Part shown: piece by piece, positions 43,349 to 46,308 of the stretch
How the letters are laid out: each line of letters begins with the position of its first letter
Position numbering within the stretch: the stretch's first letter is position 1
Virus record (IMG/VR): IMGVR_UViG_3300027365_000007
DNA: 64,000 nucleotides
Reading direction: 5' to 3' (one strand)
DNA from: a virus
Taxonomy: Duplodnaviria > Caudoviricetes
Notes under the pieces: model-generated
What the model was told of the DNA's origin: nothing
The model's input: the letters and a program-made list of their open reading frames with translations, nothing else
Database searches by the model: none
Position numbers and translations under genes: made by a program

Positions 43349-44866
43349 TTAAAAGAATTCTTCATCGTCATCATCCATGATGAACATATCTTTAAATTTG
43401 GTACCTTTCCTTATAAGGTTCACATCCCATCCAAGAACACCAAAGATTGTTAGTAACGGTTTATAGTATATTGTTTCTAACATTAGTTCTGTATCAAATG
43501 GCATTTCTTTAAACCAATCAGGAAATTGGGTCTGGTCAGTCAAATACGAAATATTCGTATAACCAAAATCATTTTTCCTCAGTTTACAGGTAACAACTTT
43601 AGATTGATCACCAATTCTTTCAATATGTTCTTCATTATTAATGTCCAATTGCTCATTCCATGTAATTGCTCCTGCAATCGCTCCCGGTATGGTAGGTTTT
43701 TTACTTATTTCCCCGTTCACATACTTATAGTGCAGGTCTGTATAGTGTTTAACCGCGTTTGCACCACTCGGGCGTCCTAAAATCCATGGTGATTTTTGCG
43801 ACAGTTCATCTTTGAATTCAGTAAAGTATGTGATCACTTCATTCTCAGGAACACCATTGAGAAGCATATCCATACCTTCTTTCAACGCATCTTGGATCAT
43901 TTTAGGGGTATCTGACCTTTTTATTTGAAGACCCATGATCTTCAATTTACCACTTTTACCGTTCTTATCAAGTCGAATACCATCTTTATCAAACAAATTC
44001 ATAGCATAACGCTTTTTCTTAATAAACAATGAATGACTTGCAAGGTTTTCACGACCTGCCTTAATTATAGTTCCATTATCGATCCCAGTGTTAAATCTTT
44101 CATTCATGAAAGATGGGAAACTTTCATTAGTTTTTTCTGAAATAGAATCATAAATCTGCACGGCTAGATCACGATCATCGAACATAGCTTTGGCCATTGA
44201 CTGTTTTTCTTCATCACCAGATGCCATATAAGCCTCATAGACGGAGAAATACGATGAGTTATGAACTAATATACCATTGGCGAAAAAGTAAGGGGTGTCT
44301 TCATCAACACCAATATCATAGACATAATCATCTATCTCTCCTGTGTGAACAACATCCGCTATTTGTTCCATGACAGGTTTCGTATCTCGATAAATAATAA
44401 CATTTTCTCCTGTCTGTAACGAATGTGGTTTTTTCTCTACCATATGGCCATTCTCACACACAGTCATACAGCTATGATCCTCTGTGACAAACACGTTGTT
44501 CCCTGAAGCTGTAATTATTTGGAACATGTTCTTCTTTGTTCGATGACGGTATATATAGTCCGGTACTTTCCATAGGACACTACCATTCTCATACGAAGGT
44601 ACTTTCAATCGTTCATCAGCGGCATACTCTTTACCATGATTTTCCCACTTTATTGAGCATTCTTCAAATAATGATTCAATGTCTAATTCTCCCATGCTGG
44701 TTTCGATTAGAGTATCCTTACGAACACTATCCGTATTCTTCAGAAGTATGTTGTTACCAAAAAACCAATTATGCTCACTATTACACATACCAACATCATA
44801 TACGTACTCGTCGGAAAAATCCTCAAGTTGCTCTACCGAAACCACTTTTGTTCTTTTAGCTTTCAC
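43349..44866 (-). CDS. gp43: DNA polymerase B, C-terminal precursor: split-intein C-half + TD + cis mini-intein + 302-aa C-extein
   Basis: The extein carries SYF, GREN, FIKKKRYA and KIMGLQIKRSDTP. The GTG start overlaps the endonuclease stop. Confidence 0.92.
   Translation of the reverse strand: MKAKRTKVVSVEQLEDFSDEYVYDVGMCNSEHNWFFGNNILLKNTDSVRKDTLIETSMGELDIESLFEECSIKWENHGKEYAADERLKVPSYENGSVLWKVPDYIYRHRTKKNMFQIITASGNNVFVTEDHSCMTVCENGHMVEKKPHSLQTGENVIIYRDTKPVMEQIADVVHTGEIDDYVYDIGVDEDTPYFFANGILVHNSSYFSVYEAYMASGDEEKQSMAKAMFDDRDLAVQIYDSISEKTNESFPSFMNERFNTGIDNGTIIKAGRENLASHSLFIKKKRYAMNLFDKDGIRLDKNGKSGKLKIMGLQIKRSDTPKMIQDALKEGMDMLLNGVPENEVITYFTEFKDELSQKSPWILGRPSGANAVKHYTDLHYKYVNGEISKKPTIPGAIAGAITWNEQLDINNEEHIERIGDQSKVVTCKLRKNDFGYTNISYLTDQTQFPDWFKEMPFDTELMLETIYYKPLLTIFGVLGWDVNLIRKGTKFKDMFIMDDDDEEFF
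44258..44728 (-). mobile_element. 157-aa cis mini-intein in PolB at YGDTD|S
   Basis: Ser1 (SVRKDT), block B VTEDHS, block F YVYDI and C-terminal VHN followed by Ser. No endonuclease domain. Confidence 0.93.
44735..44866 (-). mobile_element. C-terminal half (44 aa) of a naturally split intein
   Basis: KVVSVEQL...YVYDVG...FFGNNILLKN followed by Thr (blocks F and G, penultimate Lys). Confidence 0.88.
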
Positions 44867-45728
44867 TCCACCACCTTTTTACCTTTTCAATAACATTTTC
44901 CCTGTCATTCATCCAATCCATTTCCCAAATCACATATACTTTATAACCTTGATTCAATGCATAGCTTCTTTTTCGTGCATCATGGTTCCAAATTGCTCTG
45001 GCATTCTTATCTATTTGGCTATGATGATACGAAGCTTCATAAATCCGTGCATCACAGTGCCAATAACTACCATAAAATTCAATGACTTTTTTTCTTTCTA
45101 TGGACCCAAAATCATATGGTCCAAAGTAAGATCCATCAAGTGTCACTTGGTGTTCTATTGCAGGACACACACATTTCAATGCATTATATGCCTCATTTTC
45201 TATTTTTGAAATACCCTGTGAATATAGGCGTAAAACGTTTCCCACCCTAATTTTAGCAAAATTATTGTATTTCCTACGCCCTTCATCGAGTCCGTACGTT
45301 TCAATGAAATACTCTTCTGAACAGGTATATGCTTGGCGCTTACAATACCGATCAAACTTTTCCGTTGCTTCTTCAATACCGTATTTTTTAATAAAGTTTT
45401 CCAACGTCACCGCCCTAGATTTATTAAACTCACTGTAATCTTCTTCTGACCAACCGTGTTTTTGTTTTTTATACTCAAACGTATTACTATATGCTTGTTT
45501 CTGACGGTACTCATTCCACTTCTCAGTACCAACGCCCTTCCCATATTTCTTGATAAAGTTCCCAAGAGTAAGAGACGTTTTTTTAGCAATATCATCATCT
45601 ACTAATTTGGCACCCTTGTAAAACTCCTGATATTCTCGTCCATTAGAGAACCTTCCGGTACACTTATACTTAAAATGAGTCCATTGCAATCGCGGTAATT
45701 CAACTCCGCATTCTAAACACTTTGGCAT
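44856..45728 (-). mobile_element. Free-standing putative homing endonuclease (Vsr/DUF559-like C-domain, N-terminal Cys/His motif and repeats)
   Basis: CLEC..HF..C; three (T/S)xxxFIxxYG repeats; YDF...VIEFYGSYWH...HDARK...GYKVYVIWE. Confidence 0.8.
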
Positions 45729-45740
45729 ATATGTTTCTCC

Positions 45741-45776
45741 TAGTTATGGAGACACGTGTCTCCATAACTATTTATA
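45741..45776 (-). promoter_or_regulatory. Late promoter TATAAATA (45776-45769) overlapping a 30-bp perfect palindrome (45741-45770) that abuts the endonuclease RBS
   Basis: TAGTTATGGAGACAC|GTGTCTCCATAACTA, then AGGAG and the ATG at 45728. Confidence 0.75.
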
Positions 45777-45787
45777 CCAAGGTGCAA

Positions 45788-46308
45788 TTATTCATCGAAC
45801 GATACCAGAACATCACCTTCCTGTATATCACTGGGTTTTACTTTCACAATAGTGTTATCACGTTCGATCATGACACTGTGATCTCCGGTCACTATGACCT
45901 CATTGCCGTCACTGTCAACAATCTTCCACCTAGGTTTACTCGTCTTATGGCGGTATATGTAGTTTATATCGCCATAATACGTTTCATCCTTATCAGGATC
46001 AAAGGTCTTAACTTTCATGTTATCATTGTGACTATACTCTTTCCCGTGAGATTCCTGATTCCAGAACTTATTTCCCATAGAAAAGGCTTGCTCTATGGTC
46101 ATATCACCCATAGTGGTATTGATAATAGTATCGCCTTCGACACTATCACCATATATAATAGAATCACCTAAATGTGTATACGTACCACAAATCTGTTCAT
46201 TGATATGCGAACTCATATGTCTGGTGATACTACGACCAGTTAATGTAGTTGATTGACCAATACGCTTGTCATAAAAACGACAGTATTTATTAAGCAATGC
46301 ACCGTACA
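45788..46308 (-). CDS. gp43: DNA polymerase B exon 2 (motif B YG to motif C YGD) fused to the split-intein N-half
   Basis: YGALLN...IGQSTTLTGR...IIYGD, then the intein sequence and a stop. Confidence 0.92.
45791..46144 (-). mobile_element. N-terminal half (118 aa) of a naturally split intein at YGD|T
   Basis: Ser1 SVEGDTII block A and block B VTGDHS; ends VKPSDIQEGDVLV with no F/G blocks. Confidence 0.9.

Follow-up and report, generated by a model that had tools for sequence, protein, structure and literature searches.

The catalytic motif C of DNA polymerase B (PolB) hosts inteins at two closely spaced sites. The pol-c allele of archaeal and Mimivirus PolB sits at YGD|TDS, with Ser1, a terminal Asn and a Thr+1 nucleophile (Ogata et al. 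2005, PMC549080), and a family of phage inteins, i.e., Aes516/Aes123 PolB1 (9hth), PolB16 OarG (8cpn), CP21 PolB1 and those of PA5oct/MIJ3, sits at DTD|S. Here we describe a phage PolB gene in which both sites are occupied at once, the two inteins being separated by a spacer of Thr-Asp only. The gene lies in a 64,000-nucleotide (nt) stretch of viral DNA (IMG/VR record IMGVR_UViG_3300027365_000007; Duplodnaviria, Caudoviricetes), which we call the window and which is part of a 93-kb phage record judged to be ~21% complete. Throughout, site a denotes YGD|TDS and site b denotes DTD|S, two residues downstream; the respective elements are called intein 1 and intein 2.

Compared with the pol-c allele, intein 1 uses the same site, Ser1, terminal Asn and Thr+1. 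However, a free-standing Vsr-like endonuclease gene splits this mini-intein, which has no in-frame LAGLIDADG domain, carries a penultimate Lys, and groups by sequence with the phage DTD|S inteins instead. Intein 2 shares with the latter inteins the site, the family motifs and the R-H of the NX motif, but it is contiguous, has no endonuclease, and has another intein two residues upstream. The locus also shares all the hallmarks listed for fractured genes (Dassa 2009, PMC2677866), although, in the passages of that paper that were searched, PolB is not among the loci, and no second intein abuts a C-half there. The gp43 gene of T4-like Aeromonas phages (Aes516 annotation; Petrov, Karam and co-workers via PMC2677866) resembles ours in combining a motif-B intron with a split motif-C intein, yet that intein is single and located at DTD|S.

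Precedents for clustered sites and double occupancy exist in the MCM-a and MCM-d inteins of haloarchaea (PMC10643990; the accessible text does not state their spacing), and in DnaB, whose sites a and c are two residues apart, co-occupancy being reported for b plus a only (Novikova et al. 2016, PMC4760082). In addition, two inteins named 'LCGC14 PolB2' and 'GOM-OPS-1 PolB2' (2025, PMC12707363) are preceded by DTD and followed by SAY, as in a clade of double inteins found here. The suffix 'PolB2' and these flanks imply a second intein in one PolB and suggest that the authors knew of doubles, although the neighbouring intein and the two-residue spacing are not described there; in that group the site-b intein is split, whereas in the window site a is split and site b contiguous. 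We found no explicit account of a TD-linked double intein in the full-text literature searched, which did not extend to subscription journals. Group I introns, fractured genes, the pol-c site and the DTD|S inteins of phages are all known parts; what is new is that two intein sites separated by two residues are filled at once, an arrangement undescribed in the literature searched yet present in dozens of diverged metagenomic polymerase clusters.

The gp43-type PolB gene (48267 to 43349, minus strand) falls into four open reading frames (ORFs) and has three interruptions: a group I intron in motif B and, in motif C, the split Ser1 intein 1 and the contiguous mini-intein 2 (Table 1). The closest cultured relative of the window phage is Salicola phage SCTP-2 (440 kb). 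To reconstruct the polymerase, we linked the two exons to the six bases encoding TD and to the C-extein, which gave a frame of 929 codons. Its product aligned with no gaps to the uninterrupted 929-amino-acid (aa) PolB of a syntenic record with the same neighbour genes (IMGVR_UViG_3300021979_000003, hereafter L006), which has neither the intron nor the inteins (81.6% amino-acid and 75.4% nucleotide identity). This gapless alignment fixes all three pairs of splice junctions and makes the TD linker part of the product: the uninterrupted YGDTDS of L006 matches it residue for residue, in agreement with the sequence-only reading, for which a linker missing from the product would have been fatal. The intron and site-a junctions were also confirmed by SCTP-2. 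The L006 gene is, moreover, a natural empty-site reference for homing studies. A sliding-window comparison of DNA identity to this empty allele revealed no clear co-conversion tract (75% overall identity).

Table 1. Features of the interrupted PolB gene and of related loci (positions in the window unless another sequence is named).
Feature	Position	Strand	Evidence or remarks
PolB exon 1 (N-extein, with the exonuclease domain, motif A and the beginning of motif B)	46557..48267	-	Pfam DNA_pol_B_exo1 1.4e-20, DNA_pol_B 1.9e-11; N-terminus 60.6% identical to SCTP-2 gp43
Group I intron, 248 nt, without ORF, in motif B	46309..46556	-	Rfam RF00028, 95 bits (gathering score 50)
PolB exon 2 (remainder of motif B to motif C YGD)	46145..46308	-	Conceptual product and L006 PolB align without gaps
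Intein 1 N-half, 118 aa, Ser1, YIYRH and TGDHS, at pol-c site YGD|TDS	45791..46144	-	Motifs; orthologues at same site; stop codon 45788-45790
13-bp hairpin between intein 1 N-half stop and endonuclease ribosome-binding site	45741..45770	-	RNA fold -30.9 kcal/mol
Free-standing Vsr-like (EDxHD-type) homing endonuclease gene, 290 aa, splitting intein 1	44856..45728	-	Invariant residues; structure model; homologues at same position
Intein 1 C-half, 44 aa, GTG start, ending LLKN	44735..44866	-	74% identity to L011 C-half
Two-codon extein ACG GAT (Thr-Asp of YGDTDS)	44729..44734	-	L006 empty allele: TAC GGT GAT ACC GAT AGT AGT
Intein 2, contiguous mini-intein, 157 aa, Ser1, YIYRH, TEDHS, LVHN, Ser+1, at DTD|S	44258..44728	-	Pfam Intein_splicing 9.6e-13
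PolB C-extein, 302 aa and stop, starting SSYFSVYEAY	43349..44257	-	Identity 82.5% to L006, 71.7% to L008, 60.1% to SCTP-2
L006 empty PolB	L006:4120-6909		Reads ...IVYGDTDSSYFSVYEAY...; empty site YGDTDSSYF
L011 sister contig (ENA ERZ4787356 NODE_21816)	1-1665		Same layout as window
L012/L013 165-aa ORF (Logan SRR25400314 contig)	3479-3976		Only site-a C-half, Thr-Asp and site-b N-half

At the split-intein locus, the minus-strand ORFs span 46309-45788, 45728-44856 and 44866-43349, and the 505-aa ORF encodes, in order, the C-half of intein 1, Thr-Asp, intein 2 and the C-extein (SSYF...). Minus-strand reading bore out the insertion points given by the sequence-only reading, YGD|T and TD|S, two residues apart, and the limits of the span 44258-46144 coincide exactly with the terminal Asn of intein 2 and with Ser1 of intein 1, respectively. 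At the codon level, intein 1 begins at 46144 (GGT GAT|AGT GTC) and its C-half ends with AAG AAT; intein 2 extends from AGT GTT to CAT AAC, followed by the C-extein codons TCA TCG TAT (SSY). Because the 505-aa protein is present on two contigs, and because the same layout, i.e., intron, split intein 1, endonuclease, TD and intein 2, was found on the independent ENA contig L011, with parts 57-89% identical, this architecture is not an assembly artefact.

The intron was delimited in the same manner. The last base of exon 1, U46557, is the first base of a split Leu codon, and an in-frame TAA lies at the 5' junction of the intron. Splicing after U46557 and G46309 yields KKINLNALYGALL, which is uninterrupted in SCTP-2 and L006. 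A score above the curated threshold, together with a reading frame restored by splicing, identifies this element as a group I intron. L011 holds the same intron, with 81.5 bits in a focused Rfam scan.

Both inteins match Pfam Intein_splicing, and all the motifs that had been read as common to them (SV..DT.I.T.MG, HGKEY, YIYRH, GN.V.VT.DHS, YVYD.G and FF.N.IL.[KH]N) are indeed present in both. The N1 block begins with Ser1 and reads SVEGDTII in intein 1 and SVRKDTLI in intein 2; the N3 block (TxxH) reads TGDHS and TEDHS, respectively; and the NX motif, defined by the R/K-His of Ser1 (cysteine-less) inteins (PMC10189870), reads YIYRH in both. Ser1, the NX R-H, TxDHS, YVYD and the terminal Asn are retained throughout, and the C-terminal junctions, KN|T in intein 1 and HN|S in intein 2, each place an Asn before a nucleophile. 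By sequence, both elements would be class 1 HINT inteins, including a precise in-frame excision that restores the host motif. Intein 1 occupies the pol-c site, and intein 2 is of the Aes123 PolB1 type (DTD|S, Ser1/Ser+1). Among solved structures, intein 2 is closest to 9hth (2.3e-11), a PolB intein of the Aes123 type, and to PolB16 8cpn. Intein 2 and the N-half of intein 1 match each other with E=4.8e-20 and 38% identity, and these two are the only intein copies in the 93-kb record.

The penultimate residue of the site-a inteins is variable: nine of 38, from several clades, end in KN, as compared to none of the 63 site-b inteins. This Lys may be an adaptation to Thr+1.

We consider it quite probable that the window encodes the working replicative PolB of an uncultured jumbo phage, independently invaded by three self-splicing elements, two of which are related Ser1 inteins adjacent in motif C. 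The intron, the two inteins, the endonuclease gene and their precise limits can be read directly from the sequence. To yield an active enzyme, the group I intron would first leave the mRNA by self-splicing, and translation would then produce precursor A (N-extein and N-half of intein 1, ~743 aa), the endonuclease (290 aa) and precursor B (505 aa). Intein 2 would splice in cis, using Ser1, Asn157 and Ser+1, and the two halves of intein 1 would associate and splice in trans, using Ser1, Asn and Thr+1, leaving a 929-aa PolB with YGDTDS intact. In this scheme the Thr of the linker would serve as the +1 nucleophile of intein 1, and the bond between the linker Asp and Ser1 would be the scissile bond of intein 2, where the N-O shift starts. 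As had been proposed, intein 1 has T-D-S as its +1 to +3 context both before and after the splicing of intein 2; given that this context and positions -2 to -1 of intein 2 are unchanged by splicing of the other intein, either order is chemically allowed. The sequence context would therefore impose no splicing order, though steric ordering is possible.

Structure prediction offered weak support for the association of the two intein 1 halves. The predicted complex reached an ipSAE of 0.58, as compared to 0.00 for the best control, with contact agreement of at least 75% between runs and a partner pLDDT of at least 72. Of the benchmark complexes, 51 of 78 solved ones and two of 108 mismatched pairs reach this 0.58 mark, and passes at an ipSAE of 0.60 or below comprise five of the 78 solved complexes and all four passing mismatches (of 180). 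Moreover, solved split-intein complexes exist, so this pass may reflect memory.

The two halves of intein 1 are encoded on separate ORFs, with a Vsr-like endonuclease gene between them, a hairpin, and an 11-nt overlap of the C-half ORF with the end of the endonuclease ORF; the intein 1 locus is thus a textbook fractured gene. In the original description, hairpins lie upstream of the endonucleases of fractured genes, and overlap with the downstream ORF is typical (PMC2677866). The hairpin found here has a z-score of -5.3, and none of 200 shuffles was as stable.

Pfam and PHROG matches of the 290-aa ORF were weak (MTES_1575, E=0.005; a PHROG endonuclease family, E=6.5e-4), and a phmmer search of the endonuclease against PDB sequences returned nothing useful. 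Yet D206, E217, W223, H224 and D250 are invariant across 31 homologues, with Vsr-like spacing; by the description of Dassa et al. (PMC2677866), their counterparts in Vsr are Asp51, position 62 (which is Glu in the homing enzymes that resemble Vsr), Trp68-His69 and Asp97. An AlphaFold model of the endonuclease (pLDDT 90) was most similar, among PDB entries searched by Foldseek, to Vsr (1cw0, E=3.3e-3) and to the catalytic domain of I-Bth0305I (3r3p; TMt 0.78, root-mean-square deviation 2.6 Å), with modest E-values (3e-3 to 2e-2) and no match at E<=0.001. The family is large and uncharacterised, with more than 236 clusters and no Pfam model. Its two members closest to the window endonuclease (65% and 53%) occupy the same place within the same split PolB intein, in L011 and in a Logan contig (L012). 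In the N-terminal part of the endonuclease (window:44856-45728), we observed invariant Cys4, Cys7, His18 and Cys23 and three helical repeats of the form NFIKKYG...W..Y..Q.Y, presumably a zinc finger and DNA-binding modules.

We surveyed alleles of this polymerase in phages whose C-exteins are 50-82% identical to that of the window. L006 is empty at both sites, and single-intein alleles, for which the sequence-only reading had suggested a survey, were found at either one: at site a, contiguous in SCTP-2 and split without an endonuclease in L010, and at site b, split in L008 and P0159. Both sites are filled in the window and in L011, where intein 1 is split with an endonuclease, intein 2 is contiguous and the intron is present, as well as in L012, where both inteins are split. 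Such a sporadic pattern is what is expected from mobile inteins gained and lost independently.

To estimate how widespread the double arrangement is, we searched with intein 2 using HMMER, which returned 660 proteins. The proteins had been clustered at the 50% identity level, and the best 150 representatives were typed by the context of their junctions. Among these 150, ~94 clusters carry an intein at DTD|S only, ~18 at YGD|TDS only, and at least 27 at both, arranged as ...N|TD|S.... Either intein of a double can be contiguous or split, and P0152, P0153, L011 and L012 add further doubles to these 27. When 50,697 records of cultured phages were searched by tblastn with a contiguous double-intein query, 30 records matched the family, all with a single intein. 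Campylobacter phage CC_R7, a candidate double, was rejected, as it has one site-b intein only. A metagenomic protein of 619 aa (P0039) is a double in which the YGD|TDS intein holds an in-frame LAGLIDADG domain and the DTD|S intein is split.

As to the origin of the pair, each intein of the window has its nearest relatives at its own site in other phages. Orthologues of intein 1 are 55% identical in SCTP-2 (contiguous), 55% in L010 (split), 67% in L011 and 58% in L012, and this site-a kin is 55-70% identical overall; orthologues of intein 2 are 57% identical in L011 (contiguous) and 54.5% in L008 (split), within a range of 54-58% for its site-b kin. In line with these values, a 58-row tree grouped intein 1 with the site-a inteins of L011, L012, SCTP-2 and L010 (support 97/81) and intein 2 with the site-b inteins of L011 and L008 (98/86). 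In this phylogeny, a check that the sequence-only reading had suggested, the two inteins fall into separate, well-supported groups; another tree places both within one larger clade. L012 combines an intein 1 and an endonuclease of the window lineage with a different site-b intein, which implies that double alleles were assembled more than once, and, in a tree of 95 inteins, at least four changes are forced for each site label. Double alleles arose several times, and the pair described here was most likely assembled by separate invasions rather than by local duplication: both lineages would have circulated at their own sites in related phages, and a gene with one intein would have gained the other.

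The two sites may nonetheless share a deeper history. In three trees the intein 1 lineage is nested in a mostly DTD|S clade, twice with strong support (99/94 and 100/98) and once with 87/93, so an older two-codon site switch is plausible. In the 95-intein tree the site label changes seven times, at least four of these changes being forced by strongly supported branches, and a single clade of all site-a inteins had a p value of 0.04 in the approximately unbiased (AU) test. We think it rather likely that the site-a lineage of SCTP-2 and the window goes back to an intein at DTD|S, which at some earlier point moved upstream by two codons to YGD|TDS. Less likely, though it fares best among the alternatives, is that the two lineages were always separate, the site-a inteins being descendants of the ancient archaeal and giant-virus pol-c allele and those of site b a phage-specific allele, with no switch and a nesting that reflects tree noise or gene conversion. 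This would conform to the classical rule that intein alleles group by site (PMC549080), and site labels are strongly clustered (shuffles expect ~28 changes rather than seven), but it has to set aside the nesting and the AU result.

Several points count against our interpretation. The backbone of the trees is weak, the AU rejection of site-a monophyly is marginal, and in the third tree (58 rows) no strongly supported branch forces site-a polyphyly, i.e., more than one origin. A site switch could also be mimicked by tree error or by gene conversion between inteins that reside in one gene. The AU test (p=0.098) does not formally reject the two window inteins as sisters, and the penultimate residue of intein 1 is Lys, where His is usual.

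The last but one of these points bears on the proposal of the sequence-only reading that one intein is a recent paralogue of the other, arisen in this genome or an immediate ancestor by ectopic duplication or a two-codon homing slip at GAT|AGT, which we regard as very unlikely. The two inteins do have all the family motifs and the larger clade in common, but forcing them to be strict sisters costs 38 log-likelihood units, and they are not mutual closest relatives, as recent duplicates would be. Nor do they align closely, as had been stated: they are homologous members of one Ser1 PolB family, yet their identity of 36.5% is the family average, at the 55th percentile of 2,394 site-a/site-b pairs (mean 36.3%, standard deviation 3.9). 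The GAT|AGT reading of both N-junctions holds for the window, but the sister loci read GAT|AGC and GAT|TCT (L011) and GAC|AGC and GAT|TCT (L012). Since their codons differ, the shared GATAGT hexamer is a coincidence of codon usage, and we rejected it as a slip signature. Neither a duplication nor a slip has left any sign in this genome; what survives of the slip is the plausible older site switch.

Co-resident site-a and site-b inteins were also compared as a group. They are 37.6% identical, versus 37.2% for other pairs, and are thus neither unusually alike, as gene conversion would make them, nor unusually different, as selected orthogonality would.

The remaining two alternatives are weaker still. 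Three interruptions in an essential gene, with 21% of the genome in hand, might point to a decaying pseudogene or non-functional mosaic, another polymerase replicating the phage; this is highly improbable, as the exteins are all open and gapless relative to intact relatives, the catalytic intein residues are all kept, and L011 has the same architecture, with an extein exon 2 that is 89% identical versus 57-74% for the inteins and endonuclease. Least credible of all is a composite element that has Ser1 of intein 1 and the terminal Asn of intein 2 as its two ends and is excised together with Thr-Asp, which is chemically conceivable, Ser+1 of intein 2 attacking the ester at the N-junction of intein 1, but whose product, YGDSSYF, would lose the second Asp of the conserved YGDTDS, a motif kept in every empty and single-intein allele.

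Such double inteins provide a natural setting in which to ask how a pair of homologous inteins folds and reacts with a single dipeptide common to both active sites. They also offer naturally co-evolved, presumably orthogonal pairs of cysteine-less inteins, a type of reagent sought for three-segment protein ligation (PMC12707363), and the allele series within one phage group lends itself well to work on the gain and loss of inteins, on site switching and on gene fracture. More tentatively, the TD-linked double intein may be a stable, recurrent architecture, in which homologous cysteine-less inteins are mutually orthogonal around a two-residue extein of the catalytic motif, with PolB made from three products in L012, P0028 and P0137; if splicing were ordered or conditional, it could act as a post-translational gate on polymerase activity.

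Concerning this last type, both inteins of L012 are split, so its PolB would come from three gene products, the middle one (the 165-aa ORF in Table 1) giving two residues. P0028 (161 aa) and P0137 (150 aa) resemble this ORF. No third PolB piece was found within 10 kb downstream in L012. A further metagenomic protein, P0045 (155 aa), consists of an intein C-half ending in HN, then CDTD, then a site-b N-half, an arrangement implying that there is a third site of insertion at Y|CDTDS, which has Cys+1 and lies four residues ahead of DTD|S.

Two minor observations concern the upstream part of the gene. When the whole locus was compared with cultured phages by megablast, the intron was the sole match: its core (window:46326-46503) is 78-94% identical, over 50-190 nt, to stretches of Staphylococcus and Acinetobacter phages and of the crAss-like phage cr116_1. 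One of these stretches carries the annotation of a group I intron, pointing to an intron lineage common to very different phages. In L011, exon 1 changes frame between ~1426 and 1471, suggesting either a further interruption or an assembly error.

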